64,000 nucleotides of DNA from Schmidtea polychroa (Eukaryota), in assembly GCA_044892525.1 (NCBI GenBank), contig CM097886.1, positions 162,986,312 through 163,050,311 of the forward strand. Direction: 5' to 3'. A program made the position numbers and the translations under genes. This document shows positions 1 to 38,152 of this stretch, piece by piece (the stretch's first letter is position 1; each line of letters begins with the position of its first letter). Under the pieces are notes generated by a model. That model did not search any database, was not told the DNA's origin, and saw only the letters and a program-made list of their open reading frames with translations.

Positions 1-1179
1 TTGGGGCAATCAAACCTTCGTACCTCACTGAATTATTATCAACTCGATTGCTAAGGAAATTAATGAAGTTAATTAATTAAATTAAGGAAGTTAATTACAA
101 TTTTCTCATTGGTGTTGTCAAACGATCTTTGCTCATTCGAGATGTCATAATACATTATTGATCAATAGTAATTGTTCGGAGATTCGGCCAAATGCTGATA
201 TCCCTGAAATATTATGAAATTTTAGGATATAAATGCTTAAAATTTTAATTTATTTACATTATTATATCAAAGTTAACTAAAATCATATATTTATTCAAAA
301 TTTGTTATTTAACATTAATTATAATTACTATAATAAAACAACGAAAATTTAAATAATGTTAAATAACTTTAACAAAACAAAAAGTAATAATGAAATCAAA
401 ATTCCATTACTTTATTTAAATTATTAGTTACCAACTTGTTCTAGTATTTTAACATAATGAATTCAAGTATATTACGGAGTTAGTTTGGTCATTTGAGGAA
501 TATTATAAATTGAAAATTTAAGTAGATTAGAATTATTTACTCTTCATAAGAACTTTTATGATTGTAATGAATCTAAACTTCATATATTAATATTACCCAT
601 AATTTACAAGTGATATTTGGATTATGTTAAAATAGGTTGTAAGTTAACTTAACTAAATTGAAATTTTCTTTTGATCAGGTTATCGTGGGGAATGCATGTT
701 ATCTTTATCATTTCTATTGTTTCAGTTTATTAAGTTTTTTTTTTTTCTAATTAAATTCATTAGTCTCAAAAATTTCTTGAGGTTTGTTTAATAAACTATG
801 GTTAGGTTTCACTTAATTTATATTCAAACATTTTAGATGTGGTGTTGTATGAACAGGCTTTAATAGAGTAATGTATGATTCCTGATGACTTATGATCGTT
901 TGAGGATAGAAAGTTTGTATAGGCATAGTTGAGGAAGTGATTATAATAAGGGACCTGCGTAAATCGGACATACATCTTCTAACGATAGTCCGTGAACCCA
1001 TTAGAGTGCTCGACAATTACAGTGCAAGTAGTGCGCTCACTTTTTGCGAGTACTCACCCTCTTGATACAGTACCAACGTTGATCGTTCAACGGGTATCAA
1101 GCGGTAAACAATGTTGTATTCTGGGTTACGCTGGAAACAGCACTAAAGAACAAAATATTTGATCATCAGTAACCCACCA
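1..1179 (+). mobile_element. 3' part of the 5' LTR of a giant Gypsy-like LTR retroelement
   Basis: 1-1179 recurs at 16048-17226 with a constant offset of 16047 (the same 67-aa ORF at 813 and 16860). It ends in ...GTAACCCACCA and is followed by a PBS. Confidence 0.92.
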
Positions 1180-1187
1180 TACAAATT

Positions 1188-1205
1188 TGGGGGCTCAGCC
1201 GGGAT
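1188..1205 (+). promoter_or_regulatory. Primer-binding site, tRNA-Pro type
   Basis: TGGGGGCTCAGCCGGGAT matches the classical tRNA-Pro PBS TGGGGGCTCGTCCGGGAT at 16/18 positions. It lies 8 nt after the LTR end and is absent after the 3' LTR. Confidence 0.85.
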
Positions 1206-1975
1206 TATAAACTTTCTTGGTAAAGAACCTGTAAGTAGACGGGAATGCATAGCGTTTTTATGATCAGGAAATGAAATGCTTTATGCAAGAGTAAGAAAGA
1301 TTGTTTTCTCAAATAACTAGACATGATGTGTGAATATGCGTGTAAGATCAAAATGAATGTTGAACGTTGTACATGATGAATAAAATGTTTTAAATTATGT
1401 AAATATAGAAAATCGATAAAACTGGGTATGAGAATAATGTATGAGCGTTCCGTGTTGATGGGATAGAATGTTGATGGGTAAGAAATGAAATAAAAATCAA
1501 AAATAATAAAAATTGTAAATATAAACAACTAATACTTTGTAAATATAAGAAAATAATAAAAAATTCAAAAATAGGGAAAAGGGGGGATAGATGATAACGG
1601 TCTATAGAAAAGGGGGATAAAGCATGAAACAGTGAATTGCGAAATAGAAATAGATAGATAATGCAATTAATTAAAAATAGGGGGAAGATGTAAAACTACG
1701 TTAAAGATTAAAGGGGTATATTGAGTATTTGATAAAATGTCTAAAATTATGGACAAGCTGGGATCAAAAGGGTTATGTAGACTAAGATAATAAACTAGAG
1801 GGAACGGATAAGAATGCGCGGAACATCATTTAATGGATTGGGAGCTTAAACTAACAGGGTAAAACAGCTATTGAACTTACATAATTTGAATAAGGAAATA
1901 AATGGGTAGAGGTTAAGCTAATTAAAGGGGAATAAGAACACTTAATAAAATGCTGAATTAATAAAGTATAACTTG

Positions 1976-2468
1976 ATGGAATTAACCGGCTACATTATAA
2001 AGAAACTTGAAAATTCGTAAAACTCACTACAAAGATTGAATTGAAAAGCAGAGCAGTTGGCAAACACTCAAGAAGGGCTGATCTTAAAACCAAGACCAGT
2101 AGATGATGAATTGTGTATAATGACGAGAATTGCTACACCAAATGTGGAATTAACTACTCAAAGAGTATATCAGATTCAGAATTTACGTTTAGATAAGGCC
2201 AAATTTAACATCAAATGGCAAGAATTAAAGATAAAAATTTAAACGGTTGAAGATGCGATAAGAGAGGCGATCGATAATGAATTCAAATGTTGTGTGTGTA
2301 GAAGCAATGAGATAAAAATAATGATGGTACCTTGCGGACATCTATGTTATTGCCAAGATTGTGCATTGAAACTGAAGCGATTGTAATGTATGTGACGCAA
2401 ACATGAGAGAAAGAGTAGTAGTGTACCTCCCTGAGGGAGATGTAGAAAAATTGAAGATGATGAAATGA
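1976..2468 (+). pseudogene. Decayed ORF with a C-terminal C3HC4 RING finger (IAP/MUL1/neuralized-like RING-HC) inside the retroelement
   Basis: Reading through three stops and one frameshift at about 2381 gives ...FKCCVCRSNEIKIMMVPCGHLCYCQDCALKLKR/CNVCDANMRERVVVYL, with all 8 Zn ligands and the typical PCGH motif. Confidence 0.8.
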
Positions 2469-3876
2469 ATTGCAGCCGAGTGTGAGTTAGTAGAATGTTA
2501 GTAAAACTAATTCCATAATAGCAACCGAAAGGTATAAAACATACGTTGAACATAGACATATGAAATACACAAAAGCCGTTAAATAAATAGACAAGCAACA
2601 CACAAATTAAATTGGCGAAAGCCGTGAATTAAATACAGGACTGGCTGGGATCGCATCAAGTGTGAGCTGATCTATAAGATCAGTACGATTACCATTTTTT
2701 TTTCCTGTTTTTTTTTATTTTTGGCATAGAGAGACAGGACCATAAGGGGATGAGAAGCATATCGTCCCTACGATGCTTACCCGGATGGGGAAATCCTGAT
2801 CACCTTGATGAGAAGAGTATAGTAGGGCCCATCGCAAATGTTGGGGAGTTTCTGTCGAGTGACTGATCACCACTTGTGGGAAATGAACCAACGCGATTAT
2901 TACATTTTTTGAATTTGGGAGACAAGGACAAACTAGAAGGTAAATAAAAAGAAAAAGATAAAAAATAAAAATTGAAAAGGTGCACCAAAAGATAAAAATT
3001 TTAATTATCCGAGAGCAGCTGCGGATTTGAAGAAACCGTTTTTGGACTTCAAATTGGAGGATATGAATTTTTCCCTAGCGAGTGATGAGGCACCCGAGTA
3101 CAGCGGCTAACCACCGGACTGTAGTGTCCAGGAGATTATCAGCCAAGGGACTGATGATGCTGGATCACCCAATACAAAAACCCGGATACCCACACCGAGT
3201 ATTGGGTGCATTTTTTTTTGATTGGCTAGCGGGACTTGATACAAAAACCCGGAAGGGTAGCGAGCGAGAGAGACCCAGTTACCTACACCGAGTATTAAGG
3301 AGCCCAGTGAAACGGTTGTGAGATGCGGGTCAACCGGTAAAGGACTCGTACTCAACAGGCAACCAAGATTGGACCAGTTGTGAGGCGGGAGACCGAGAGT
3401 CAACTGCATATCCAATTTCCTTTTATCTTCACTAGTCGGGAGATCTGGTTCATCACTTTTGAGAATCAAGATCGAGGCGATTAGGCATTTCCGTGTTTTT
3501 TAAATCCTGATAGATAGGATGTTTTTTTCTTCGTGATTATTGCTAGCAGGGGTCGGTACAAAACCCGGATGCCCACACCGAGTACCGATAGGCCCAGTGA
3601 AACGGCGATGAGATTAGGGTTACCGGTATTAAACTCTTTTCAATAGGCGGCCAAGAATTGAGCTAGTTGTGAGGCCTCAGCAGATTAATAATTTGAGTAG
3701 GAGGAACCTTAAATTTTTAATTGGTCCGAAAGTCAACTGTCAACTCAATTTAATCGCGGTAGGGACGATAGTAGGTGTAAAAACTGAAGGCGTCTGGGGG
3801 TTGAAGAAACCTCATTTAGGGCATTTGAAACCGATCAGGGACCGAAGACCGCGAATACGGCGTAAAGGTGTAAAAG

Positions 3877-4715
3877 CCCAGGCGTCTAGGAGTCGTAAAA
3901 GACTTCAAAGATTAAAAGTATAATTAAACCGGCCGGAAGCCGATGCCGACGCGGAGGTCTAATAAACCGAAGCGTTGATGGTTGATAGTGAATTATATGG
4001 CGTAATGGTGTAAATACCCAGGCGTCTAGGAGTCGTAAAAGACTTCGGAGATTAAAAGTATAATTAAACCGGCCGGAAGCCGATGCCGACGCGGAGGTCG
4101 AATAAACCGAAGCGTTGATGGTTGATAGTGAATTATATGGCGTAACGGTGTAAGAACCCAGGCGTCTAGGAGTCGTAAAAGACTTCAAAGTTTAAAATAT
4201 GATTAAACCGGCCGGAAGCCGATGCCGACGCGGAGGTCGAATAAACCGAAGCGTTGATGGTTGATAGTGAATTATATGGCGTAATGGTGTTAAAGCCCAG
4301 GCGTCTAGGAGTCGTAAAAGACTTCAAAGATTAAAAGTATAATTAAACCGGCCGGAAGCCGATGCCGACGCGGAGGTCTAATAAACCGAAGCGTTGATGG
4401 TTGATAGTGAATTATATGGCGTAATGGTGTAAATACCCAGGCGTCTAGGAGTCGTAAAAGACTTCGGAGATTAAAAGTATAATTAAACCGGCCGGAAGCC
4501 GATGCCGACGCGGAGGTCGAATAAACCGAAGCGTTGATGGTTGATAGTGAATTATATGGCGTAATGGTGTTAAAGCCCAGGCGTCTAGGAGTCGTAAAAG
4601 ACTTCATGAGATTAAAATGAGTTGATTAAACCGGCCAGAGAGCCGATGGTAATTGAATGAAAATAAATGATTTAAATGAAATAAGAGAGGTGATTAAACC
4701 AGCCAGGGAGCCGAT
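3877..4715. repeat. Tandem array of about 140-bp units with a 419-bp higher-order repeat
   Basis: CCCAGGCGTCTAGG starts at 3877, 4017, 4157, 4296, 4436 and 4576. Units 1/4 and 2/5 share diagnostic variants. Confidence 0.95.
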
Positions 4716-5592
4716 GGTAAATAAATGTAGACGTAGAGGTCGCGCGAACCGAAGCGTCGATGATTAACTATGAACGAAATAAAAGAGATAAACGATTAAG
4801 ATGAAATCGATTAAATTGACATAGATTAAGTGCGACAAAGAGGTAATGATTAAAGGAAAATTATGATAGAGCGCCGGCGCAAGAGAAAATGAAACCAAAT
4901 TTTTGAATGGGGAAAAGCGAATGAGGAGATATTAATTAAGTTACTGATGAGTTTTATATGTATATGACTAATGATATATATTTTTGAATTATATAATTGA
5001 TGTTGTGATTATACGATAGATAATTGATACGACGATATAGATAATTGATACGAGTTATAGATAATTAAAAATGGACTTAAATTCAAAGGGGGGTGAGTAG
5101 CAAAAAGTAAAAGCGTACCATGAATTAGAAAAGGAACAGCGAGAGAAATAATGAGTAAAGAGTAGTATAAAATAAAGAAAATAGGGAAATAAATGAAGGG
5201 TAGGATAAAATGAATAAAATATTATGATATGTACTAGGAGTGTTAATTATTTTAGAATAAGTCAATCAATAAGTCAGAAGGAAGTCAATACAAGCCAAGA
5301 ATTCAAGAGAAATAAAGAGAAATCAAAAATTCAAAAGAAAACAACTAAGGAATCAAGAGAATCAAACGAGGATAGAAGAAAGGTAAACAAAGTCAAATTA
5401 AATAACAAGAGGAAAATTAAAGCGTTGGCCAACGAAACACAGTGAAATTCAAAAGAGATTATTAAAGCAAGAAAAATTGATAATAAAGCCAATCGAACGA
5501 GATCGCAGAGCAAAGGAGGCTCTAGTTTATTAGGAAACGCAGGGAGACAAAGAGCCAAGAGAAACAGAAGAATCAATAAGAAACCAGCGTCA

Positions 5593-8500
5593 GTGAAAAC
5601 ATTATTTGAATCAGACAGCTTAACCAACGAAAGTGAAAACAGCGACGATATTAAAAGAAACGAATTATATCCGGTAACTGATATCAAACCAACAGACAAG
5701 GAAGATAGTAGTTCAGGCATAACAAGTTTGTGTCGAGATATAATGTTAGACGGAAACCAAGTGAACAACCCGAATGGGTCAGAGTCGACATACACACCCG
5801 AAATAAACCATGTCAACGTCAATGTTGGAGAATTTAGAGAAAGATTTCGAGGAGAACCATTCGATGGGAATATTAATGAACTAGAAACGTTTATAAAAGA
5901 ATTCGAGGTATATATTACGATATGTCACTGGCCAGACATAGTCGTACGAGAGCGAATACCATTATATTTAAGAGGAAGTGCACAAGATGTATATTTAGAG
6001 GCAAAGTGTGATACAACAAAACTAAAAACATGGAAATCAATAAAGAATTTTTTAATAAAAACATTCGGTAGCAAAAGGGAAGTAAATCGCAAAATGTTGG
6101 ATTTTCTGCATCGAAAGCAGAAATACAATGAGTCAAACGCACTATATGCAGGTGAATTAAGACGACTGGCAAAAGAAGCATTCGATTCAAATCAAACAGT
6201 TCCGGAAGACAAGATAATAGCCGTATTCGTAGAGGGTATGAAAAGAAAGGACATACGAGCAACAGTGGGTTGCCGAGCGCCAGACACGCTCGAGGAAGCA
6301 TTAAAAATCGCTAATAAATGTGAAAACTACTTGACTCCAGTACAAGTAGCAGCAATGGCAGCAGTACCAATAGCTACAACACCAACAACGACAACCGAAA
6401 TTAATCAAACCAACAATGAAAATCTAGGAATGAATCAATTTATCTCAGAATCGCAACAGTTGTTCAAGGCGCCAAAAACGACAAATCCAGATAACAGAGG
6501 TAATATTCAATTTTACACTAATAATTTCAGGAGCAACGAGAACAATAATCGGAAGTGTAACATATGTCAACGACTAGGACATTGGAGCAACGAGTGTTAT
6601 AAGACAAGGATGTGCCAAAATTGCGGTAAAAGGGGTCACACAGAAAATATATGCCGAGGACCAATGATGTCGATGAGAAGAGGAAGGACTAGAACCTGCT
6701 ACAGTTGCAACCAACTTGGACATGTGGCGAGAGAATGCGCGATGAAGACAAAACATAATCAACCAAGAGCAAACGATCCAAGTCAAAATATACAAATCAA
6801 CATCATGCAGAAAATTGAACAGTTGAAAAAGATGATCCAACGGATACCAGAGGATATCCGGAAACGACCAACAAGAGAACAACAAGACCAGCAACGAATC
6901 GAAGGGCAGAGACCACTAAACGAAAAAGCCAGAGAAATTCAAAAAAGATGGAAAAAGCGAGAAACCAACACCGGAAGAATAAATATGATGAGATTAATGA
7001 ACAAAGGGGAACCGCACACTGCGGAGCAGTGTGTTAACAAGAAAGGGAGCGATATGACCGTAATCAACGAGACAAAAGTGATAAAAGAAAATGGGTCACA
7101 TCAATTGACGGAGCAATTGACAGAACTGAGTAGCGAGGATAAAATAAAAATAATACAAGGGTTCACCAAAGAAGAAAAAGAAAAGAGACGAAGAAGAGAT
7201 GAAACAGGGCACGAACCAAAAAGCAACGAGATTGTTACAAAGAATCGAATTCAGAGGGTATTACTACAAAAAATTGAAGATAGAATTAGAAGAGAAGAAC
7301 CAAAATTAACGGATGAGCAAGTAAAAGAAAAAGTAAAAGACAACTGGTTCAGGAAAAATGAGTGGTTCGAAAAGAAAGAACCAAGTAACAGAGCCAATAT
7401 AAACATGCTGAGACAAATACAGAATGATCAGACGGATCAGGAAGACGGGAAAAGTGCGATGAGTAGCCTGAGAAGTGAATTATCTCAATCAAGTGATGAA
7501 AATAATGAACAAGGAACACCTCAAAATAACGAAGAGGGTGAGAGCGACGATATGGGATCACTGATAGAAAATGACGATGAGGAAATATTCGAGGAAATTT
7601 CCGACATGGTATCGGAAAGAGAACGAAATGAGAGCTATATCAACGAACCAACATACAGAAAATGTATAAAACTGATAACTCAAGCATACCAGTGGGAAGG
7701 AGATATATTAACGGCAACATGGAAAGATTTGGTGACGAAATATAAAGGAAAATTGAAAGAAGTTGATCCAGATCAATACCAAGTAAGTATTCAACACCCT
7801 GAAACTCAGATACAGATTATTGAATTAAAAGTAACAAATACCGATAAACTGTATAATTGGGTACAACAAAAGATGGGAACAAGTCATAAAAATAAACAGC
7901 TATACGACAATGGTTATAAAGTTAAAATGAGCATACATTTAGTAGATATGATGAGATGGCCAAACGAAGTTAATATCTTAATCTTAAAGAAAAACAGAGA
8001 CAGCGAATCAGTAACGGAAATACTGAGGAAAATCCAACAGATATTCAACAATGAAGTGGAACCAGAAATAGAAAAGACTGAACAAAAGATAATGAAGGAA
8101 AATCAAATAATCGTAGTAAAACAAGCAATCGATCAAGCGAAGAAATATATTAACAGATTTAGGGAAAGATGGCCGCAGCTAATGAAACAGTTTGTCAAAG
8201 ACGTACGGGATACTGAGATTATGGGATTTGAATATAAACGAGCAACGGAGTTGATATCAAAATATGGTGAATACGAGAGAATCAGATGTGAACAAGAATT
8301 ACCATGGCCATCCAACAGAAAAGTGACAATAGTAAGAGAATCACTGAAGAATAGTCATTTAAATAAACACGAAGAAATGATCAAAACATCACATGTCGAA
8401 GACGACATTTTTGGAAAAGGCCGGAGTGGAAAAAATGACAAAGACCATAACGACAAAAATGAGGAAGACGACGGGAACCATGAAAGGAACAACATAAATG

Positions 8501-8745
8501 GGAACTCAAACGAACGAGATAATGAAGAAGACAAGGAGTCAGAAGATGACGACGAAGACTTGAAGGATACTGAGGACAACTCAGACCAAAGTGAAGACAA
8601 CCAACATAATGAAACAGAGAACGACAAACGAAAGTCCCCACTGCATAACATAGTAATGCGGAAGAATCTAAACCAGTCACTCCTACTACAAATTATCCTA
8701 ATAATACTAACGTCAATTTACCTAACAGAAACGAAAAATAGGTGA
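5593..8745 (+). CDS. gag: Gag polyprotein (Ty3/Gypsy capsid, three CCHC zinc knuckles, long charged/acidic extension, C-terminal hydrophobic signal-like segment)
   Basis: 1050-aa intact ORF. Capsid-like FDGNINELETFIKEFE...W...LYLRGSAQDVY...TLEEALKIA; knuckles CNICQRLGHWSNEC, CQNCGKRGHTENIC and CYSCNQLGHVAREC. Confidence 0.92.
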   Translation: MKTLFESDSLTNESENSDDIKRNELYPVTDIKPTDKEDSSSGITSLCRDIMLDGNQVNNPNGSESTYTPEINHVNVNVGEFRERFRGEPFDGNINELETFIKEFEVYITICHWPDIVVRERIPLYLRGSAQDVYLEAKCDTTKLKTWKSIKNFLIKTFGSKREVNRKMLDFLHRKQKYNESNALYAGELRRLAKEAFDSNQTVPEDKIIAVFVEGMKRKDIRATVGCRAPDTLEEALKIANKCENYLTPVQVAAMAAVPIATTPTTTTEINQTNNENLGMNQFISESQQLFKAPKTTNPDNRGNIQFYTNNFRSNENNNRKCNICQRLGHWSNECYKTRMCQNCGKRGHTENICRGPMMSMRRGRTRTCYSCNQLGHVARECAMKTKHNQPRANDPSQNIQINIMQKIEQLKKMIQRIPEDIRKRPTREQQDQQRIEGQRPLNEKAREIQKRWKKRETNTGRINMMRLMNKGEPHTAEQCVNKKGSDMTVINETKVIKENGSHQLTEQLTELSSEDKIKIIQGFTKEEKEKRRRRDETGHEPKSNEIVTKNRIQRVLLQKIEDRIRREEPKLTDEQVKEKVKDNWFRKNEWFEKKEPSNRANINMLRQIQNDQTDQEDGKSAMSSLRSELSQSSDENNEQGTPQNNEEGESDDMGSLIENDDEEIFEEISDMVSERERNESYINEPTYRKCIKLITQAYQWEGDILTATWKDLVTKYKGKLKEVDPDQYQVSIQHPETQIQIIELKVTNTDKLYNWVQQKMGTSHKNKQLYDNGYKVKMSIHLVDMMRWPNEVNILILKKNRDSESVTEILRKIQQIFNNEVEPEIEKTEQKIMKENQIIVVKQAIDQAKKYINRFRERWPQLMKQFVKDVRDTEIMGFEYKRATELISKYGEYERIRCEQELPWPSNRKVTIVRESLKNSHLNKHEEMIKTSHVEDDIFGKGRSGKNDKDHNDKNEEDDGNHERNNINGNSNERDNEEDKESEDDDEDLKDTEDNSDQSEDNQHNETENDKRKSPLHNIVMRKNLNQSLLLQIILIILTSIYLTETKNR

Positions 8746-9960
8746 ATTACGAGAGGAAATCTGAAAGAAGGCGAACTATTCATGATAAAAGTCAGCGGCA
8801 ACGACGGAAACGCGGTCGGGATATGCATCCAATTGATGGAAGGAACCGGAGTAAGTTGTGATTTTAGAACGATAACAAAAGGGAGGATTTTCAATAGTCA
8901 AAATGGAGAACCTGAATTATGCGGAGACTACAACATTTGCGAAGACATAACATCAGAAGAAAAAGAATTGGAAAGAGCTAACGAAACCGGAGTACATGTC
9001 GCAATTAAAGCTACAATGGAAGGTATCGAAATAATAGATAAAGGAAATTTGCCAACAACGCAAATATGTTTTAGAGATGACGAAGACATATGTATAACGG
9101 TGGACATGAAACGAGATCGCGAATTTTTTTGGACAAACGTAAAACCAAACACCAACATGGTGGTATGCGCAGGTACCCAGGCAATAGTGGTATGTAAAGC
9201 AGTTAAAACCGCGCAAATAAAAAGCAGGCCAAAAAGTATGGCTAGTAAACGATATCAACCAAGGATCAAACCGGCAATTAAGAAACCCCAGAAACAATCC
9301 CGTACGGGAATGATAAGAGGACAGCACCAAACCAAGAAAAACACAACAGTAATATGGATCAAAGATGAGAGACGAGAAGTACTAGTAAATGTCGAATTCA
9401 ACAAGATAAGAGAAGAAGTAATCACGGTCAGAAACCAAGGTGAAGAACCAATAGTAAGAGTATGTGTACTAAACAGGACAGGAATAGTCGACTGCATAGA
9501 AACACTACTTGACAAAGGTGCAGAAGTTAAAATGACAATAGGAGAAAGAAAGGGACGATACCACATATGCGTTCTTAAAAACGGAAGCGATTTAAGTTCA
9601 TGCCAAGCAATAACCAGACAACGACCACGGATGATAAACATACTATTGACAACCAGAAAACCAAAAGAAGTGGAAAAGCCAAAAGGAAACGAACATCTAA
9701 CGGCAGAAGAAACGAAACAGTTATACCAGATGCTCAAGAAAAATAAAACACAAGAGGCAACTACAACAGAAACTAAAATGATGATAACGACAGGAAAATT
9801 CAACGAGACACTGATAACCGTTAAAATGATGTGGATCGCTAGCGCAATAATGAGTGCAGTGATAACATCAATAATAATCCAATGGATAAGAACCTCCAAA
9901 ATATGTAAACAAAAACCTAAAGGCAGAAAAAGATGGCCACAAGTGGAGAATTCCGAATAG
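8746..9960 (+). CDS. Cys-rich, putative type-I membrane protein (env-like?) in frame with gag
   Basis: Same frame as gag and separated by one TGA (8743-8745); first ATG at 8782. Many Cys, and a TM-like MMWIASAIMSAVITSIIIQWI followed by basic RTSKICKQKPKGRKR. No family recognised. Confidence 0.5.
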   Translation: MTRGNLKEGELFMIKVSGNDGNAVGICIQLMEGTGVSCDFRTITKGRIFNSQNGEPELCGDYNICEDITSEEKELERANETGVHVAIKATMEGIEIIDKGNLPTTQICFRDDEDICITVDMKRDREFFWTNVKPNTNMVVCAGTQAIVVCKAVKTAQIKSRPKSMASKRYQPRIKPAIKKPQKQSRTGMIRGQHQTKKNTTVIWIKDERREVLVNVEFNKIREEVITVRNQGEEPIVRVCVLNRTGIVDCIETLLDKGAEVKMTIGERKGRYHICVLKNGSDLSSCQAITRQRPRMINILLTTRKPKEVEKPKGNEHLTAEETKQLYQMLKKNKTQEATTTETKMMITTGKFNETLITVKMMWIASAIMSAVITSIIIQWIRTSKICKQKPKGRKRWPQVENSE

Positions 9961-11600
9961 GGTATTCCAACAGAAAACCCGAATCCAGAAGAGTACGAAG
10001 CGATTGAAGATCCAAGGTCAAGCAGACTATGGATGCAAGAATTACTCAGAATACAAACCCTAGACGATTGGGTAAACGAATTTGACATATACCGGCTAAC
10101 GGATGAAAGATATGGGGGGATGCGCACATTGCATTCAGGTCCCCTGGCAACAATGGTATAAGAAAGTGATGAGTCGATGTAAATAGTGTGTATATAAACG
10201 TGAGGGTAAAAGTAGTTTAGTAGATTAGTAATATGTTCAAAAAAAAAAAGGTACAAAAAAAAATGGGTAGGATAACTACGTATTATGAATGAATCAGAGA
10301 AACGAGGATCAAGTATATCAAACGAGGATACCACATGTTGTTGAATTGGGAAATCAACCACTAGTAAACATTAATCAGACATAAATAGTAGAAATTGATA
10401 CAAGTACAACGATAAACCAACCAAGTTAGTCAGCAGGATCAATGTGAAGAACACAATGTGAATTAATGACAAATGACAAATCATACCCAAGAATATCGGT
10501 TACGTAATTAGAATGCGTTAATGGAGAGCATCAATAGAAACTCGATATATATAACAAGAATAAAAGAGCAATAACAAATAATCGCACAATTAAAATACAA
10601 TAACAAACAGTTGATAAGCCAAATAAAATGGGAGGCAGGAGAAATCGGGAGATTACACGAAAACCATCAGCATGATGATATAACGAGTTAAGTTGAATGG
10701 ATAACCGGCCTACCAGGAACTGGGGAACCGGACTCAACGAGAGAGGCATAAAAGAAGGGAAAAGTAGCCCTGTAAACAAACAAAATTATAGCCAAAGTAG
10801 AAAATCCGAAATTAAACGCTATCATGGCAGAATGCCGAGGGAAAGTGGAGAGAAGTGGAGGAACAAAACTATTAATTATGAGCTGATAAGAAAATATTAG
10901 GTCAAGTCAGATGAATTCGAGGAGAGACTATTGTGTGTGGACAAAGTGTGTAGAAGATTATTAATAGGACACGTCAAACCCTATGAGGATGTAGATTATG
11001 CCATGGAGGTACTACACGAATTGTAACGAGAAAAGCAGAAATTAAAGAGAGAACCACAGCAAGAATCAGCCACATCCCAGATGACAATAATAATAAAAAT
11101 CTTAGAAGAAATAAAGCAGCGAATAATGATGACTGTCAACGAATGTCCGAGCAACTATGAAACAAAGACGCTCGAAGAAATAAAGGAAAGGGTAAATAAC
11201 GCAGTCAAAGAAAAGACAATTACTCAAGATGAAATAATAAAAACATTGAGAGAGATATAGATGGAAATAATAACAACTATTGACAAAATCCCGATGAACC
11301 ATGAGACAATGACCAAAACTTTAGAAGGAATAAAGAGGAGAATATCAACTACCTTCAACGAAGACTTCGCATACTAAAATGTCCTAATAAAGATGTTCAC
11401 GGAAATCTGGAAAGGAGTAATGACGACAGTAAACAATACCCTACACACTGAATCAAATAACCTCGAAGAGGAACTCAACTCGACTGATACAATCCAACTA
11501 ATGAAAACAGTGAGCACGTTGCGAGAGATATAGAAAGAAGTGACAATCAAAACAAGGTCAGCAGAAAAAAAAAAATTGAATGTAAAGAAAACCCAGAATC
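9961..11600 (+). pseudogene. Degenerate continuation of the retroelement polyprotein
   Basis: The same A-rich codon-like composition continues after the TAG at 9958-9960, with many stops. Helical repeats TLEEIKERV / TLREI / TLEGIKRRI near 11100-11550. No RT, RNase H or integrase motifs seen. Confidence 0.55.
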
Positions 11601-13949
11601 CATAACAGTACTGATCCTGTCAGCAGCGAATCTCATGATAAATAACAATACTGAGCTTGATAGCCCTTAAACCCACTCAAATCCATGAAAGCACCAAAAT
11701 CTCTCAAGTTGAAAGAACAATTCCGAAGCATTCGCATTCTAATAGACGAACCAATACCCAGAGACCAAATCTATCAAATCTATCAAATCTATCTTCTACA
11801 ACCTTCAAAACTAGAACCGTCATCGAGACGAGATCCCGAACAACCGAGTGTTTAAATCCTGATATAAACCGACAATGATCTTGATATAATATGACAACGA
11901 TATTGAGTTGATTGACAATGTTCTTATTATGTGTTGACAATGATCCTGATTCGATTGACAATGATCTGAAAATGATCTAGATGTGATTTAATAATGATCC
12001 TGACATGATACAACAATGATATGATTTGATTATTATTGTGATTTGATGCCAATATTATATATTACTATGATATTATTTGAGCATAACAATTTAATTAAAT
12101 TTTGTGTGGACCGACCTTGGTCTTCTTTCTCTTCATCTGTAAACCAATCTGTAGCATGTAGCTTATCAGTAGAAACTTTTTATGTATGTGGGTATTGAGG
12201 TCACGACCCTGTAGCTCGTGGACCCAATTACATGTAGGCACTTGTAATACAGTGCAACCAATTCTGTCTAATTATATCTTGAACATTGATTAAATTGCGG
12301 GTCGCAATTTTATGGGCCCCCGAGTGTTTTATGTTGGGCTAGAACTGATTTCTAGACCCAAAGTTAGGAATGGGACGAAATGTGTCAGTACACAACACGC
12401 ATACCCAGCATTAAGTTTACTTAAATAAAAATATATAAAACACCAAGTAAACAATGATAATAGAGAGATAATATACCCAAAAATAAAACATCTGAATTAA
12501 AAATAAAATAAAACACGAGCAAGAAGTATTACATGAAAACTTACTCAAATATAACCAAAAGACATAAAACAACAAAAAACAAATTCGAATAAAGGCAATT
12601 AGTAAAAATTAAAAAAGAAAATTAAAGAAAATCTTCATAAAATCTTACGTAAAGAAAATTATATCGATATTTTGAATAAAAATCCAGAACAATTCATAAA
12701 AATGGCGAAATCCATCATGACGGCCAAACGACCCAATAAAATTTATAAAAAATAAATATTTTAGTTTAAAAAATAAATATTTTAGAAAAGAAATCATAAA
12801 AAACAATTTAAAAATAAGAAATAGATTAAATTTAGCATGGAATGTTCTGGAAATGCTGAAATCCATCATGGAGGCAAATTTAATAAAAAATAATTCGAAA
12901 ATAAAATTTCAAAAATAAAAACAAAAATTCTTACTGAAAAATCGCCATTAAAATCGATAAAAATTAAAAATCGAATGTTCGAGAATTAAAATAATTCGAA
13001 TTTGTTTTACTGCATCAATGCACGCATGTATACTTACACGTCAAACAGAGGCTATATAAACTAACACATTTCGTCACTTTTTAAGCAAGCAAAATATGCT
13101 AATGTTTACTCTTATGCCAAATTTTTGATTTTGATTTTTCTGAGATTGTAGGTAAGGACGATTTCATTGTGAATTATAAATTATTATTATTGAAACCTTG
13201 TTTTCATTATTTCTTTTTAACTATAGAAATGTAGGTTTGAGTGAGATCGTCGGTTATCATTGATTTTGGAGCGAGATCCCAGTCAACCCTGCACCTATGC
13301 ACTTTATCATCGATGATTAAACAGCCCACAATGATTGCAGGTCACTGCCTGGCACGCACTTATCAATATTATTTGTTTTTTTTTGTTCAGGTCATTCGGA
13401 GGTCGCACCACTTCATGGTTCTGCCATGGAGTTAAGTCGATGAAATCCTCCGTCTGACTCTACCTATTTATTATAGGTCAGCCGTAAAGGGTTGACTTAC
13501 CACACAACAGTAAGGTTTGTCGTAGTGGTCACAGTGGGGCCGCGAAAGCAAACACTCCTCCCGACTTTCAATGCATGAATAATTTACATAGTTAAAATCT
13601 ACATCCAAAAGCATCACAATACAATACACTAAGGTTAATAAACAGAGTAGATCTCAGACCTAAATCAATCACAACTCTACAATTCACAATTAATGTAGAC
13701 GGTTAAATATCATCAAGAACCCACTCTACCTATACGTTTGTCGAATCTAGATTCATGAATGTCTTAAATAAATTTTTTTAGTAATAGTGTAAAGCAAAGA
13801 TTTTTAAAGATGATTAATTTAGTAGTGATAGTATTCATAAAGGTGTTCGACATGCGTATCAGCAAGACTTGGATTTTAAATTGAATAGACTCTAAACTAA
13901 CTATAAAAATACCAATCGTAAACCCATAAAAGTATAAACTATCCTCTCA

Positions 13950-14800
13950 ATTTCATAAAAATATGAATTATACTTATAGATTCAATTTCTTCAAAATATA
14001 AATTATGATTAGTTATAAAAGTATAAATTATAAATTTAATTTCCTAAGAATATAAATTACAAATCTATATTGACGGTAAAATTATAAATTATAACTCTAA
14101 GTTAATTACAAAAGTATAAATTATAAAATTATATTAGCCTTAGAACATAAACTATAAATTTAACTTAACCTCATAAAAATATAAATTATAAACTTAAAAG
14201 TATAAATTATAAAGTTATATTAGCTTTAAAAATATAAATTATAACCTTAACTTCATAAAAATATAAATTATAAAATTATATTGGCTTTAAAATATAAACC
14301 ATAAATTTAACTTCATAAAAATATAAATTATAAACTTAAAAATATAAATTATAAAATTATATTAGCTTTAGAAATATAAACTATGAATTGAACTTCACCA
14401 AATATAAATTATAAACTTAAAAATATAAATTATAAAATTATATTAGCTTTAAAATATAAACCATAAAATTAGCTTCATAAAAATATAAATTATAAACTTA
14501 AAAATATAAATTATAAAATTATATTAGCTTTAGAAATATAAACTATGAATTGAACTTCACCAAATATAAATTATAAACTTAAAAATATAAATTATAAAAT
14601 TATATTAGCTTTAAAATATAAACCATAAAATTAGCTTCATAAAAATATAAATTATAAACTTAAAAATATAAATTATAAAATTATATTAGCTTTAGAAATA
14701 TAAACTATAAATTGAACTTCACCAAATATAAATTATAAACTTAAAAGTATAAATTATAAAATTATATTAGCTTTAAAATATAAACTATAAATTTAACTTA
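13950..14800. repeat. AT-rich minisatellite inside the LTR (AAATATAAATTATAAA-based units, about 160-bp higher-order period)
   Basis: Many copies of AAAATATAAATTATAAA; the block GAAATATAAACTAT...TTCACCAAATATAA recurs near 14370, 14535 and 14695. Confidence 0.85.
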
Positions 14801-15140
14801 ACTTAGATTGCCTTTAACATCATAGTTGAAAATTTTTCATCAAAGACCCCCCATAAACCATATAGTCATCAACTACCACCTAAATATACTAAATTAGCTT
14901 ATCTTAATATATATTTAACTTATATTATATTTTAAAATATAAATTGAAAATTTTCATAAATGACCCCCCTTCAAATTATGTAGCCATTAACTATTCCTTA
15001 GGTATACTGAATTGTATCATCTTCGTATAGAGTCAAATTATATTTCAAACCAAAAAAAAAAAAAATAATAATTCCATAAATTTTCGTAAATGATCCCCCC
15101 CCCCCCATATGTAGTAATCTTATAAAAATATAAATTTACA

Positions 15141-15275
15141 TTTATTATTATTATTATCGTTATTATTATTATTATTGTTATTATTATTATTATTATTATT
15201 ATTAGCATTGTTACCAGTAACATTATCACTCTTACTATTATTATTACTATTATCATTATTATTATTATATTATTA
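15141..15275. repeat. (ATT)n-rich microsatellite inside the LTR
   Basis: Direct reading; an expanded equivalent lies at about 35790-36360 in the solo LTR. Confidence 0.9.
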
Positions 15276-15789
15276 AAATAATTATCTTTATTTCATAAAA
15301 ATAAAATTATAAAACAAATTATTGATTTTGGGATTCCCCTATCTTTAAATTTAGTTTCAATGGCCCTATCTTCCAATAAAATTACGGAAAATCACTAAAA
15401 TCTATTTTTAGTAACACCCCCCCCCTGAAAACGACATCAATATTATTAATTTAAATTATATCCATATATGTATATATGTGTGGGTGTATATGTATGTGTA
15501 TATATAAGTGGATGTGTGCATGTACATACCGATTTATAAAGCAACCTTATAAAAATACGATAACCTTCCCCTCAAGACCCCTGTTATGTGATGGTCACAA
15601 CCCCCTTAAGGTGATGGAGCGAGGTTAGAGTAGTTTACTGAAGTAATTTAGTAGAATCATTTATTGATTTATTAGAATTATTGGATTTATTTTTAACTAA
15701 ATCAAAAGAGACTAAATTTATTTTTAACTAGATCAAAAAAAAAAGAAAAACAAAGACTAAGTTTATTGATTTCGATCATCAACTTTATT

Positions 15790-16250
15790 CATATAATTGT
15801 TTCTTTGAATCATAGTTATACCAAGGTCCTTCGAGCACGGTTGATGGACCATCCCAATGAAATACATTTCCTGGAGTTGGAAGACTTCTGGGTAATTCCT
15901 TATTTTCTGCTTCGTTCCTTTTGGTTCAATGACTTACATATTGATTTGACGTAATATTGTTGGATGGCCAACTATATTCCTTGCATCTCTTTTTGAGTAG
16001 TCATTGTCAGATAATTCCGCCAGGAAGATTAGTTGGTGGAACTGACCTTGGGGCAATCAAACCTTCGTACCTCACTGAATTATTATCAACTCGATTGCTA
16101 AGGAAATTAATGAAGTTAATTAATTAAATTAAGGAAGTTAATTACAATTTTCTCATTGGTGTTGTCAAACGATCTTTGCTCATTCGAGATGTCATAATAC
16201 ATTATTGATCAATAGTAATTGTTCGGAGATTCGGCCAAATGCTGATATCC
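15790..16250 (-). pseudogene. Putative spliced antisense gene remnant within the LTR U3
   Basis: Minus-strand segments DISIWPNLRTITIDQ*CIMTSRMSKDRLTTPMRK, NRVDNNSVRYEGLIAPRSVPPTN and SLPTPGNVFHWDGPSTVLEGPWYNYDSKKQLYE* are separated by GT...AG blocks of about 50 bp. The first segment resembles a minus-strand segment at about 36850-36990. Confidence 0.45.
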
Positions 16251-17227
16251 CTGAAATATTATGAAATTTTAGGATATAAATGCTTAAAATTTTAATTTAT
16301 TTACATTATTATATCAAAGTTAACTAAAATCATATATTTATTCAAAATTTGTTATTTAACATTAATTATAATTACTATAATAAAACAACGAAAATTTAAA
16401 TAATGTTAAATAACTTTAACAAAACAAAAAGTAATAATGAAATCAAAATTCCATTACTTTATTTAAATTATTAGTTACCAACTTGTTCTAGTATTTTAAC
16501 ATAATGAATTCAAGTATATTACGGAGTTAGTTTGGTCATTTGAGGAATATTATAAATTGAAAATTTAAGTAGATTAGAATTATTTACTCTTCATAAGAAC
16601 TTTTATGATTGTAATGAATCTAAACTTCATATATTAATATTACCCATAATTTACAAGTGATATTTGGATTATGTTAAAATAGGTTGTAAGTTAACTTAAC
16701 TAAATTGAAATTTTCTTTTGATCAGGTTATCGTGGGGAATGCATGTTATCTTTATCATTTCTATTGTTTCAGTTTATTAAGTTTTTTTTTTTTCTAATTA
16801 AATTCATTAGTCTCAAAAATTTCTTGAGGTTTGTTTAATAAACTATGGTTAGGTTTCACTTAATTTATATTCAAACATTTTAGATGTGGTGTTGTATGAA
16901 CAGGCTTTAATAGAGTAATGTATGATTCCTGATGACTTATGATCGTTTGAGGATAGAAAGTTTGTATAGGCATAGTTGAGGAAGTGATTATAATAAGGGA
17001 CCTGCGTAAATCGGACATACATCTTCTAACGATAGTCCGTGAACCCATTAGAGTGCTCGACAATTACAGTGCAAGTAGTGCGCTCACTTTTTGCGAGTAC
17101 TCACCCTCTTGATACAGTACCAACGTTGATCGTTCAACGGGTATCAAGCGGTAAACAATGTTGTATTCTGGGTTACGCTGGAAACAGCACTAAAGAACAA
17201 AATATTTGATCATCAGTAACCCACCAT

Positions 17228-17640
17228 GTATTTCAAGCCAAAAATAGCTCGCAAATTTCTATTGCAGTTGGAATGATAACATAATCTCCAATCGTGTGAC
17301 GCATCTTTGATTTTGCAATTATCTGGACAATCAAGTACGATAATTTAACACTTTTTTCGCTGAGGGTAAAATTAGTTTTTAACACTGCTCTCTGTTCAGT
17401 ATATCCACTGGCTTTGCGTTCAAAATATTCTTTTGATTTGTTTTACTGATCCGGATGTCTTGTAGTAAGATGACGACTCATTTTCGTCGGTTTCATAACT
17501 TCATTTGAGAGGACTTGCAAACAAACCACACACACTGCCAGAATTTCGTCATTTTTCGATAGTACGAAACAATATTTTATATATTTCACATCATATTTTC
17601 GAGTACATTGGGTTTTCTTACAGACATCAATTGAAATGTT
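17228..17640 (-). pseudogene. hAT (ZBED5/Buster-type) transposase N-terminal fragment, truncated at the LTR insertion
   Basis: Minus translation RKYDVKYIKYCFV...CVVCLQVLSNEVMKPTKMSRHLTTRHP...EYFERK...IAKSKMRHTIGDYVIIPTAIEIC. Confidence 0.8.
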
Positions 17641-18648
17641 ATCTTGATCATCACCGCTTTTCTATGCCATTAATATCAGTTTCGTGGCGCGAAGTCAATT
17701 GTTTAAACTTCAGAAAACGATCCATTTTACGGGTTAAATTCTTCTATAATTCTAACGACTCTAACTTTACTCAAAACAATAAAAATATCTCCGAAAAGGT
17801 GCGTAAACTACCGGTGAAATGTAAACTATTATCCTTTTATAGTTTATATACTGCTATGAAATAAACATAAAAAACAGTGCTTAAAATGCAACATGCGATT
17901 GCTGAAGTCATTGCGGGTAATATTTGCACAGCTGGTACACTGACTCACTTTTTAAACTGTGCTACTAGAATAGACCGAGTGTTAATAAACTAGCAATCTA
18001 CAATTCTGCAGTGTGCAGCCGTATAGTCCGCTACTTTAAATTCGTGGTAAACGACGAATTATTTTTTATTTTCTTCTACTTTTTGTACTTTTTCTAGACT
18101 TCATCGTGGCCTACCAGATCCTCTGCCAAGGTCCACCTTTAGGCTGCGGCCCATGAACTGATAACGACTGTTCTATGAACCTAGAAAAAACATCGAGATA
18201 TTAGCAGTCTTGACACACGACAATAGTAAAGAGAAGCGAATAGGTACGAGCCCGGAAGTTTTCTTACAATCGAAACCCACCACTATATTATTGGAATAAA
18301 TACTGTAACTTTAAATATTTTAACTTATTGTTTTCTAACAACCCACTTACAATTTTATCATTACTGAGATTTCCATGTTCAATTTCCAAGCAACTTCGAT
18401 TGTAAAATAAAACTAAAATTTCAAAAAATAATTACAACTTTGATTTCTGTAAAACATGCTATTTAATTTGCCTGTCACATATATTTAATCTTTATTCAAA
18501 TTCATTTTACAATAAATTAGTCGTGATAAAATAATTGTTTTGTTTTTTAAGTTTGAGTTATGTTAAATTAACTTTTTGACATTTTAATTTCAAACTAAAC
18601 AAAGTTTAAATTAATTTTTAAAATACACTATTTTTTTATTTAGATTAA

Positions 18649-26447: not shown

Positions 26448-26715
26448 ATTCTTGACCAACCTAACCAGAGTGAAGAAGAATCGCAAGCGGAATCAGTTAC
26501 TCGCCTCCGGACCCGCTTGGTTTGGTATAAAATACATGAGTGGACACGGGGAGGATTAGTCGACCTTGGACCCATCATTCAGACTGAATGCGAGCCAGGA
26601 GCCTGGGTCAAGTCCGAACCAAAGAACAACGAGCTATACCAGGCCAGGCAGGAGGCGGATGTAACAGTAGCCAGGCTTCGCCTTGGAGTCCGGAGATCCG
26701 GTGGAGGAGGTAGAA
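26448..26715 (+). pseudogene. Divergent homologue of LTR-encoded ORF A (N-terminal part)
   Basis: VTRLRTRLVW...GAWVKSEPKNNELYQARQEADVTVARLRL aligns with ITRLRTRYIW...PAWVKTEPENNRLQEARDQAAWDVEAAQIRL of 37477-37857. Confidence 0.75.
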
Positions 26716-31457: not shown

Positions 31458-31700
31458 GTGGATCACAGGTAATCAACATTTTACCTTGTCGTGCTGTTTC
31501 CAGCGTAACCCAGGATACAATGGAAATTTGACAACTTGGTACCCGTTAAATGATCAACGTTGGCACTGTATCAAGGATTGGAGCACTAGCAAAAAGTGAG
31601 TATGCTTGGTATACTATAATTGTCCAGTACTCACTTGGCTCCACGGACTGCCGATAGAAGACCTATGCCCGACTTTCGACTGGTCTTTATCCTACTAACC
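31458..31700 (-). mobile_element. Divergent remnant of the LTR 3' end (R/U5), reverse orientation
   Basis: The reverse complement shares GGGTTACGCTGGAAACAGCAC, CAACGTTGATC and the flanking stems with 17010-17200. Confidence 0.8.
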
Positions 31701-33542: not shown

Positions 33543-36036
33543 TTATACAACAATAAATAGTATAATAATACTTATGAAACTATACTTATGAAATAATTTA
33601 AATTATCCTTTTCTAGTTCTGATATAAACATATATGGGAAAATATCAATTATGCTACTATAAGTTGCTATTAAAGTCTATTACATCTGGTTTTATAATTT
33701 AGGTTGCGAGTAATTTATTAATATCCTATTAATTATGAATATTTGATGGGTTACAACATACGGTTGATTAAATTATTAAAATGATATGAGATAATTTATC
33801 GACCCAAAGTCCATGTAGAATTTATAGTGAGTATAAATACAAGATATGAGATTATACTGCTATTATATATAATAATAGTTCATAAATTAGAATTAAATTT
33901 AATCTATTCCTTATTTTTAAATTGTATTTTGTATATTGTTGGGCTAGAACTGATTCCTAGACCCAAACTTCTAATTGTGGCTGCAATGTGTAGGTACACA
34001 ACATGCAAAAAGCAAAAAGTATAGTCAAATATTAAAAATACACCAAATAAACAATATTAACTAAAGGAGAAAGCAACAAAAATAATAAACACACAAATTA
34101 AATAAAATTATACCAAAAGCAAGAAGTTATGCAAAATAGAACTCAAAAATAACCAAACAAACATAGAGTTACAAAAAACAAACTCGAAAAACTTAAAAGA
34201 CGATAAAAACAACAAAAAAATTCCAGAAAAACCCAGAACATTCCATAAAAATGGCGACAATCATCACAAAAGCTACCTTGAACAATAAAAGTTAGAAAAA
34301 TAACTAAATTAGTAATAAAAATAAAAATTCGTAAAAAGAAATTCATAAAACATAGGTTAAAATAAAAATAAAATTAAAATTAACATGGAATGTTCTGGAA
34401 CCGTTCCAAATCCATCATGGACGTCAAATTAACGAAAAATAATTAAAAAATAAAAATTTAAAAATAAAAACAAAAATTATGGCACAAAAATTGCCATTAA
34501 AAATAGCAAAATCGCAAAATAGAAAATTCTGGAATAAAAAAGAATTGGAGTTTGTTTTAATGCATCAATACATACACGTGTACAAAATAGGTATATATAC
34601 TGACACGTTTCAGCCACAGAGCATCATTATTTTATGCCAAAAAAATTTCTTTTTGTCAAAAGGATATCAATAGTAAGTATTATTGTGTCAATTTTTTTGT
34701 GTACTATTATTTGTGTATTACTATTATTAACTCATCTATGCTAAAAGAGATTTTTAACGATTTTATATTTTTGATTTTCATTAGATCAACTTTTTGAGCA
34801 ATGTACGAAGGTTCAACGGCGTATTGGTGTTCCTGCGCCGTTGTTCGGTCCTACATTCGATTTTGGAAAATTTCATAGGACATGCCAACATGCATTATCT
34901 ATATTATATTAATCGATATTATACGGTTCTTTTTGTTCGGGTCAGCCGGAGGTCGAACTACTTCATGGTCCTGCCATGGAGTTAGGTCGAGGAAACCCTC
35001 CGCCTGACTCCTTGTATTTATTTAAGGTCAACCGTAAATGGTTGACTCAGCACACAACACTAAGGTTTGTGGAAGTGGTCACAGTTGGGCCATGGAAGCA
35101 ATATTCTTCCCGACCTTTTACGTAACACATATTTAAATTCAACATTTAAAATTAGTACAACACAAAATACACTAAGGTTCTAAATTGAGTAGAACTCATA
35201 CCTAAACTTACACAGTTCTGCAAACACACTAAAGTAGCTGGTCGATTAATAATAAAATTTGGGTTACGCGTGGACATATGCCGAATTGGGTTTGGTAACA
35301 TCATCTCATATTAATTGGAATAGAAACGGGAAAATTATTCGGCCTATGTCCAAGTAGAGCCTGCTAAGGGGTCGACTATGAACTCATTCCCCCGCAGATA
35401 TAGAATTATGAATTATGAAATACAAAATTATAACTCGTAGGATATAAAACTGTAAATTAGAGACTATAATATTAATAGTAGAATATAAAGTCATCAAGGG
35501 TAAAAGAAAAATTATATAACATAAATTCCTAAATCGAAGAATATAAAGTCATGAAATGAAAAATTTGAACTTGTGAAATATGAATTTACAAATTATAAAA
35601 TTAGAAGTTGGAATGGTAAATTAGGAATTATCAGAATATGAATTTATAAAGTGTAATGCATAAAATTGTAACCTATAATCAGTACATAGGACCTGCCCCG
35701 AACTATCAAATATTAATCCTGATATAACCCTCCAACAGGTATGAAAGTAAATTATAACGATGTATAAGTGAATACATTCAACATTATTAGCAGATTTACT
35801 CATATTATTAACATTATTACTCTTATTATTATTGTCATTATTATTATCATTATTATTAACACTATTGTTATTAAGGTAAATTACAACGATTTACAAGTAA
35901 ATATTATCAACATTATTACTCTTATTATTATTGTCGTTATTATTATCATTATTATTATCACTATTGTTATTAAGGTAACTTACAACGATTTACAAGTAAA
36001 TATTATCAACATTATTGGCAGTATTACTCATATTAT

Positions 36037-36269
36037 NNNNNNNNNNNNNNNNNNNNNNNNNNNNNNNNNNNNNNNNNNNNNNNNNNNNNNNNNNNNNNNN
36101 NNNNNNNNNNNNNNNNNNNNNNNNNNNNNNNNNNNNNNNNNNNNNNNNNNNNNNNNNNNNNNNNNNNNNNNNNNNNNNNNNNNNNNNNNNNNNNNNNNNN
36201 NNNNNNNNNNNNNNNNNNNNNNNNNNNNNNNNNNNNNNNNNNNNNNNNNNNNNNNNNNNNNNNNNNNNN
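36037..36269. other. Assembly gap (N run) within an (ATT)-rich repeat
   Basis: Run of N. Confidence 1.
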
Positions 36270-37476
36270 TCATCATTTTTACCATTACTATCGTTATTAT
36301 TACCACCATCACCCTTAATTTCATGGTTATTAATGCAATCATTAATAGTATTATCATTAGTAACATGATCTCAGTACAATAGGTATCCTTATTTGACGAA
36401 AATAAACTTAGAAACTGAATTATTAATTTTGGGATTCCCCTATCGCTAAATTTAGCTGCATTAGCCCTATCTCCCCATAAAAATCACGGAAAATCACCAA
36501 AATCTAATTTTAACAACACCCCCCCCCCCCCCGGAGGACGACGTCAAAGTATTGATTTGAATAATGTAGAGGCACGCACATATACATATGTAAACATGCG
36601 TGGGTGTGTAGTTAGGTAGTACCTATACATACATGGATGTGGGTGGGGACTTAGAGGTCCAAAGAGTAATAAAAATACAATACCCCCGTAGTACCTTGAA
36701 CACAACCCGTTAGAAGAACAAAATAACGACAATATGATTAATTAAATAGTTCGTTAAAATAATGTATTAATTCACCATGAGAATTAAATTTATCTTCAAA
36801 ACAAATCAAAATACAAAGTTCAAGTTAAATTTTATTGATCTGAAATCAAACGATTATAAACCCAATTGTCAAGGAAATCTAAAAATCTTCTCAGCAGTAT
36901 CGTCGAGCTATCTTTATCCATGTGAGGGTCCATAGTGTAGTTTTGATCAGTGCTGACTGACCCGAGAGTTCGGCCGAAAACTGGTATCACTAAAATAATT
37001 ATTAACAAGTTTATGAGAAAATTACTAACTACTTGAATTCATTTCCTCTATTTTGTCAATGTTGACTAAAATTATTTAAAAATCATTGTTTGGCCTTGAG
37101 GACGATTGCTGTGATAAAACAAGGAAAATTTAGAGAATGATCAATAACTTTAAACAACAAAAGGAAAAAGGAATTGTTCATTAAATGGGTACACTAAAAA
37201 ATCTAAAGCAAATTTTAGTTAGATGTATTTATATTAACTATAATAAATTTAGTGGGTAATAAAAATATACTGCTAAATTAAATCGAATTGTGAGGTTAGC
37301 AGTACCGGTACTAATTATAATAAATTTAATAGTTACTTAAAAATTATACTGATAAACAAAATCAAGATTTTAGACTAGTAGCATTAGCATCAATTGCAAC
37401 AACTTTAGTAGTTTGAGCATTATGGATTCTAAACCAGGAATTTCTGACGTCTATTTATAAGTCACATTGATTATGC

Positions 37477-37857: not shown

Positions 37858-38152
37858 ACAAAGGCCGATAATTGACGTAGTACAATAACTCCTTACTTAG
37901 TGGGTGTGGTTTAATTAATAATCAATCTTGACTAGTGTTTATTGTTGAATAATAATCTCTTATTCATTTGATGTCTTAATTAAAGATTAAAATTGACTGG
38001 GGTTTATCATTAAATGAAGTGTTTTCCTTTTAAATTGAGTTATAAGTAACCAGTATAACAATGTCCTAGCGACACATTACTAGTATTGATTAATTGGTAC
38101 ATTATTCGCTGTTCCAACTCTTTTAGCATGTGTAAAATTAATAACACCTTTT

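Follow-up and report, generated by a model that had tools for sequence, protein, structure and literature searches.

The window analysed here, a stretch of 64,000 nucleotides of the Schmidtea polychroa genome (contig CM097886.1, positions 162,986,312 to 163,050,311; window start G000:C2:162,986,312), opens inside a giant long terminal repeat (LTR) retrotransposon of 20,944 bp, counted from the 5' LTR through the 3' LTR. We assign this element to a family of about 100 young copies that lack copying enzymes, descend through two large deletions from a Burro1-like giant Gypsy element of the same genome and are likely packaged with the protease (PR), reverse transcriptase (RT) and integrase (IN) of Burro, an explanation to which we give a probability of roughly 85%. 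Much of the underlying anatomy was established directly. The element is a colinear, deleted version of Burro, and the env-pol and IAP/TRAF regions have been lost throughout the family. The LTR ends, the primer-binding site (PBS) and the tract preceding the 3' LTR are retained, and the copies are recent integrase-type insertions with 4-bp target-site duplications (TSDs), as in Burro. Finally, an island in the leader is nearly identical in the two families, and one insertion carries one LTR of each.

To reach the start of the 5' LTR, 8 kb of DNA upstream of the window was added. The LTR begins at G000:C2:162982594, 3,718 bases before the window, and measures 4,897 bp, its 3' part occupying positions 1-1179 (features lie on the plus strand unless stated otherwise). 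The 3' LTR (12332-17226; 4,895 bp) contains 81-bp tandem repeats at 14114-14799 and an ATT microsatellite. Both LTRs have TG...CA termini, and their full alignment over 4,898 bases revealed 0 mismatches and two 1-nt gaps. TGTA follows the 3' LTR (17227-17230) and also precedes the 5' LTR, forming the TSD. The original prediction, made from the window alone, had proposed a recent insertion with LTRs of about 4.9 kb and an end about 3.7 kb upstream, in agreement with the completed element. It had also named a tRNA-Pro PBS. The PBS (1188-1206, 8 nt behind the LTR end; the same in Burro) indeed corresponds to CCA plus the 3' end of the tRNA-Pro(TGG) genes of this genome. With paired LTRs, TG...CA termini, a TSD and a PBS matching a host tRNA, the element is an LTR retrotransposon. 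The tract before the 3' LTR (12291-12331) is poor in purines, and no classical polypurine tract was found there. It includes a GGGCCCCCGAG tract and an 8-bp hairpin, and its last 40 nt are identical to Burro. Because all 4 autonomous Burro loci compared have the same tract, the missing polypurine tract is a trait of the lineage. Note that the tRNA-Pro(TGG) genes form a 475-bp tandem array at G000:C1 about 130.9 Mb (L149-L152), and that the tRNA-end motif has 2,164 exact matches genome-wide.

The interior encodes gag without pol, as predicted. Pfam scans of the open reading frames (ORFs) of the window, and of two unbroken ORFs from sister copies of the family, returned only Retrotrans_gag and zf-CCHC above the cut-off. 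When the part of the Burro polyprotein from MATH to ankyrin was compared with the whole element by tblastn (E up to 10), no match to PR, RT, RNase H (RH) or IN was obtained, not even a degenerate one; the sole match was at the left breakpoint of the first deletion. A tblastn search with Burro PR-RT-RH-IN against 60 family loci gave 1 match, which lies in flanking DNA and not in the element itself. An Rfam scan of positions 1-18000 produced a single match, below threshold, at a dinucleotide repeat. Env-like, MATH, ankyrin and BIR/IAP domains are missing from the element as well, removed by the two deletions described below.

The autonomous partner that the original prediction had postulated proved to be a Burro1-like element with the same LTR termini in the same genome (781 Mb). 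A Pfam RVT_1 search of the genome returned 150 short-ORF elements, none of which led to Burro. A BIR search uncovered a high-copy ORF of 392 amino acids, and five BIR-bearing Burro loci were fetched and compared. According to Pfam, the Burro ORFs encode gag knuckles, MATH, an Env-like fusion domain, protease, RT, RNase H, integrase and ankyrin, followed by TRAF and BIR-RING ORFs. Two complete Burro elements are 34.4 and 38.2 kb long. The two LTRs of a Burro copy agree at 99.1-99.98%, and 4-bp TSDs were present in both cases checked. The window element was colinear with all five loci (blastn/tblastn), and the LTR ends and PBS of its family match those of Burro. Outside the leader island and the ends, DNA identity to Burro is 68-84%; protein identity is 67-75% up to about codon 950 of the family ORF and 54-69% over the last 610 codons. 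At the junction of deletion 1 (8298-8359), about 9.7 kb of Burro comprising MATH, Env, PR, RT, RNase H, IN and ankyrin has been removed in frame. Deletion 2, in the 3' region, took out about 6 kb with TRAF, IAP and other ORF sequence and joined the head of TRAF to a later ORF of 341 amino acids. As judged by sequence comparison, the element is a colinear deletion derivative of the Burro1-like element. As possible parents, two loci from other families with env were considered and rejected because they have no similarity to the interior or the ORF. One such family (L083-L084, G000:C1 about 110.16 Mb) has an ORF of 3,334 codons that is unrelated in sequence to the element.

A gag search of the genome returned 88 matches of 95-100% identity, and sequence tags of the 3' end (3' tags) occurred in 108 exact copies for the family and 276 for Burro. 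The family comprises about 100 young copies without copying enzymes. Twenty plus-strand sisters, picked for long frames, were fetched; all of them have a single ORF, with the 3' LTR about 2.2 kb further on. Leaving aside L009 and L011, whose 3' ends lie outside the fetched span, each of the 18 sisters for which both ends were recovered has a 4-bp TSD (lengths 20.3-22.4 kb), and the LTR pairs were 0-0.31% apart in 17 of these 18. When 100 of the 108 3' tags were compared with the gag matches, 74 of the 88 matches paired with a tag, 72 of the 74 at a distance of 6.2-6.9 kb. A tag just upstream of deletion 1 occurred 100 times; 98 occurrences ran into the junction and the remaining 2 loci were colinear across it, so that the deletion is common to 100/100 tagged copies. 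If the element were a single deleted copy, or its identical LTRs a product of collapse during assembly, this would account for the zero mismatches between the window LTRs and nothing else. Two indels distinguish the LTRs, which have TSD flanks; there are 108 exact 3' tags, as well as 18 separate TSD-flanked insertions whose sites lie elsewhere and whose LTR pairs are near-identical; and a contig from an independent public run (X5, 8211-9590) spans the junction. This explanation has practically no chance of being correct and is already refuted by the sister insertions and the junction tags.

Family copies were also seen in same-direction pairs 16.0-16.4 kb apart (G000 C1:199.55 Mb, C1:85.87 Mb, C2:16.29 Mb and C2:77.92 Mb), as tandem elements with one LTR in common would be. 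Two family LTRs separated by 45.3 kb do not delimit a long element but stem from segmental duplication of a solo LTR, and L116, which has an odd LTR start, is an old fragment without interior.

The family ORF of about 1,572 codons (5446-10161) fuses Gag and its linker in frame to the C-terminus of the Burro polyprotein. It contains a Retrotrans_gag capsid domain (PF03732; 5959-6243) and three CCHC zinc knuckles of the nucleocapsid (6553-6741), both recognised by Pfam. A full frame of 1,565-1,580 codons was present in 52 of the 88 gag matches, none having a longer one, and the frames of the other 36 were shorter. The window copy has stops at 8743-8745 and 9958-9960, codons 1100 and 1505 of the family frame. 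What had been taken for an intact Gag of 1050 amino acids is thus a truncated piece of this frame. The piece measures 1,099 codons from stop to stop, and its in-frame ATGs begin at codon 100. Among the 20 sisters, the first ATG is codon 11 in 6 and codon 92 or 100 in the rest. IN(M/I)(M/L)-type motifs are retained at four places homologous to Burro.

The C-terminal part of the fusion is a membrane-protein module (8660-9960) consisting of a hydrophobic stretch, a Cys-rich beta region and a second hydrophobic stretch near 9810-9890. It had been listed among the extra genes of the element, and alignment indicates instead that it is Burro's own C-terminus, inherited by the family. The predicted fold of the whole module is poor (pLDDT 40.6), and the second half is predicted to form an Ig-like beta-sandwich (pLDDT 75). 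This half gave generic structure matches only (best Z 9.2, root-mean-square deviation 2.5, 77 aligned) and no Foldseek match at E<=0.001. No homologues of the module were found in the near or longer length classes; the shorter class was not searched. Three weak matches from a representative search were put down to chance, since the two scanned with Pfam were ankyrin proteins. Methyltransf_FA, an Atlas lead for the module, scored 0.78 and thus remained under the threshold.

We then compared the leaders of the two families. An island at 3101-3850 is 96-98% identical to Burro, with flanks of 73-82%. By segment, identity between family and Burro is 95.7-98.3% at 3131-3850, 73-75% at 1991-2700 and 80-82% at 5701-6400, and within the island 9 of the 20 sisters are nearer to the Burro copy BurC than to the window copy. 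Such an island would result either from sequence exchange or from a packaging signal under very strong constraint; we regard it as a candidate for a shared packaging/dimerisation region or an exchanged tract. The island is followed by a tandem array of about 140-bp units (3855-4713), with fewer units in Burro.

A second link to Burro is provided by the chimeric sister L017, in which the 5' LTR is 97% identical to Burro and the interior and 3' LTR are of the family type. The chimera is flanked by TTGT on both sides. It lies inside a large palindrome (G000:C2 about 80.59-80.62 Mb; L127/L037/L095/L128), the arms of which are 100% identical over 3,313 bp; the other arm has kept the empty site with a single TTGT. 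Exactly such a chimera is expected, under the standard model of reverse transcription, if plus-strand transfer takes place in a particle that contains one Burro genome and one family genome. The structure is thus likely the product of a mixed particle, later gene conversion of the whole LTR being the alternative.

These links bear on the identity of the helper. Pol might have been lost recently from an autonomous sister of Burro that has died out or escaped detection, with this sister or some other family, rather than Burro1, as the present or past helper. The synonymous divergence (dS) between the family and Burro is about 0.9, compared with 0.02-0.04 among family copies, so that the loss of pol falls on a long branch and cannot be dated; the genome searches scored best candidates only. 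However, 100/100 family-type tags lead into the junction, and the island and the chimera connect the family to present-day Burro. Moreover, the insertions are so young that a helper must exist now. We consider this scenario improbable.

On the preferred explanation, with Burro as helper, RNA of the family would be made from the 5' LTR. Rather probably, the Gag-fusion protein would be translated and would bring its own RNA into particles that also contain Burro Gag-Pol. It is plausible, in other words, that the family supplies its own capsid, as the original prediction supposed. The Burro protease would cut the fusion at the retained IN(M/I)(M/L) motifs, Burro RT would prime the family RNA on tRNA-Pro, and Burro integrase would insert the copy. 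Template switching in mixed particles would keep the leader island alike and would have produced the chimera.

Several observations weigh against this explanation or limit it. Transcription, translation, co-packaging and trans-mobilisation by Burro are steps that we infer from genomic sequence, and the traces of co-packaging and trans-mobilisation are the island and one chimera. Of 20 sampled sites with the same tRNA-Pro PBS (L129-L148), 18 belong to LTR families whose ends differ and whose interiors vary; the PBS alone can therefore not single out Burro. The folding energy of the island is unremarkable (z -1.7). L017 is the sole chimera, with none further among the best 40 matches; no Burro-type 3' LTR was present at 40/40 family 3' tags checked, and the last 300 nt of the family LTRs form no cluster with those of Burro. 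In addition, a 99.4% identical sister at another locus carries both stops of the window copy, indicating that the truncated lineage transposed. It follows that the membrane module is likely dispensable in cis.

Evidence for constraint on the Gag fusion is likewise mixed. Relative to Burro, capsid, knuckles and linker have a ratio of nonsynonymous to synonymous substitution rates (dN/dS) of 0.07-0.13, and the membrane module one of 0.26-0.28 (dS 0.83-1.09). These values also cover evolution on the branch of Burro and before the loss of pol. Among the family copies themselves, the signal of constraint is weak. Over the first 1,075 codons, shared variants have a nonsynonymous-to-synonymous ratio (N/S) of about 0.47, compared to 0.59 for singletons overall (Fisher p 0.56), in a sample of 20 sisters that had been selected for long frames. 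In the membrane module, the N/S of shared variants is 1.02 (p 0.14 against the first 1,075 codons).

Ratios not clearly under the singleton background would be expected if the family were a passive passenger that acts only in cis, similar to a LARD, using the Gag as well as the enzymes of Burro, with an ORF of its own that is undecayed as yet or only weakly useful. The shorter frames in 36/88 gag matches, the variable first ATG and the transposition of a lineage with two stops are in line with such a passenger. Yet the 1,572-codon frame has stayed open across an in-frame deletion of 9.7 kb, while the neighbouring RING and TRAF/341-aa relics acquired shared stops and frameshifts, which argues that the Gag fusion is used. 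Furthermore, both stops of the window lineage leave the capsid and knuckles intact. We regard a purely passive passenger as rather unlikely, and a cis role of the family's own Gag fusion as plausible.

Apart from the Gag fusion, the genes that the original prediction had assigned to the element (RING, LTR ORFs) do not survive in it. Positions 2001-2451 hold a relic of an upstream RING-finger ORF of Burro, broken by in-frame stops and frameshifts. The Burro version has about 160 codons and is open in 4/4 Burro leaders. When six sisters were examined, the four with a motif match were broken, as is the window copy, and none of 20 sisters has RING in a frame of at least 60 codons. The second relic (10781-11900) is the decayed fusion of a TRAF head to the tail of the 341-aa ORF, with the deletion-2 junction near 11002-11031; its stops are shared by 8/8 sisters. 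The RING, TRAF and 341-aa relics are dead.

The LTRs of Burro contain two conserved small ORFs encoding proteins of 110-150 amino acids that are 62-96% identical across LTR types (L061, L053 and others). These ORFs are absent from 21/21 family LTRs and from 4/4 family solo LTRs. At the site where Burro LTRs hold them, the window copy has an AT-rich segment (15882-16781). Family LTRs have unrelated, interchangeable AT-rich versions of this region, the window type being present in 10 of 21 and a second type fully in 3 and partly in 5. The Burro LTR proteins are possible regulators of the element. One of them ends in a basic PRKRGRP tail, which we take to be AT-hook-like, and one scanned with Pfam gave no match. 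Elsewhere in the window, a solo LTR of another Burro-type subfamily (33937-39025; 77-83% identical to Burro LTRs; TSD ATAT) bears both LTR ORFs, at 37477-37857 and about 38153-38626, and these may be the LTR ORFs referred to in the original prediction. Burro-lineage LTR fragments lie at 31475-31700, 39032-39472 and 26463-26669, two of them on the minus strand.

The family can be read as a naturally occurring deletion map of an element of 35 kb. Env, pol, TRAF, IAP, the LTR ORFs and RING can be lost; what has been kept, namely the ends, the PBS, the pre-LTR tract, the 750-bp leader island and Gag, points to the packaging signal. As a practical consequence, Burro1 RNA interference, probes or read counts aimed at the leader or the LTR ends would also catch the family. 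According to PMC13465017, citing Lee et al. 2026, Burro1 is reported to help planarian stem cells via its IAP gene. A family that likely uses Burro enzymes and has no IAP gene would thus provide a regeneration model in which the interplay of host, helper and cheater can be tested. More tentatively, and with less than even odds in our estimation, the family may be a long-lived, defective-interfering satellite of Burro1 in which the capsid is under selection, the packaging signal is refreshed by recombination with the helper inside mixed particles and the IAP gene has been discarded. Such a cheater on a mutualistic, retrovirus-like element could even move between cells in the Env-bearing particles of Burro.

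A pol-less Burro family is not described in the literature searched, although the main Burro papers (Grohme 2018, Lee 2026) and their supplements may already name it. The principle of a non-autonomous partner with gag only is known from plants and mice; size, host and helper are new. LARDs are defined by a long non-coding interior, and the element differs from them in that 52/88 gag matches have a frame of 1,565-1,580 codons.

Burro1/GYPSM1 of Schmidtea mediterranea is a giant Gypsy-like LTR retrotransposon of >30 kb (PMC6431247). Its published set of MATH, Env-like, PR-RT-RH-IN, ankyrin and BIR-RING ORFs matches the autonomous partner found here, which is called Burro1-like on the basis of this domain architecture. 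The window element shares with this partner the Gag with three CCHC knuckles, colinearity and the ends. In contrast, it measures 21 kb rather than 34-38 kb and lacks Env, PR, RT, RH, IN, MATH, ankyrin, IAP and the LTR ORFs.

In mice, the IAP 1delta1 element (PMC6466679) has an in-frame internal deletion that creates a Gag fusion ORF; it depends on proteins supplied in trans and still yields insertions, and the fusion protein is reported there to act in cis. The window element resembles it in being an in-frame-deleted Gag fusion that lacks autonomy and inserted recently. However, the IAP 1delta1 deletion is 1.9 kb and creates a gag-pol fusion, whereas here 9.7 and 6 kb are gone, no pol remains and the fusion partner is a membrane module. 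The divergence between the family and its helper is also deep, with a dS of about 0.9.

Among plant elements, TR-GAGs (PMC4350172) measure <4 kb and combine LTRs and a PBS with one Gag ORF; they encode no enzymes and show signs of activity. The window element agrees in its LTR-PBS structure, single Gag ORF, lack of pol and activity but not in length (20.3-22.4 kb in 18 copies); it is an animal element of 21 kb whose fusion ORF has 1,572 codons and whose helper has been identified. The non-autonomous partners Dasheng/RIRE2, SNRE and BARE-2 of plants are named in PMC4079214, and LTR swapping appears in the title of the paper on soybean. Our family is similarly amplified, non-autonomous and equipped with cis ends shared with a coexisting autonomous family. 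In contrast to these plant systems, the family LTRs are, except at the ends, 68-84% like those of the helper, and there is one chimera in place of a swapped LTR lineage. In conclusion, we file the element as a non-autonomous Burro derivative.

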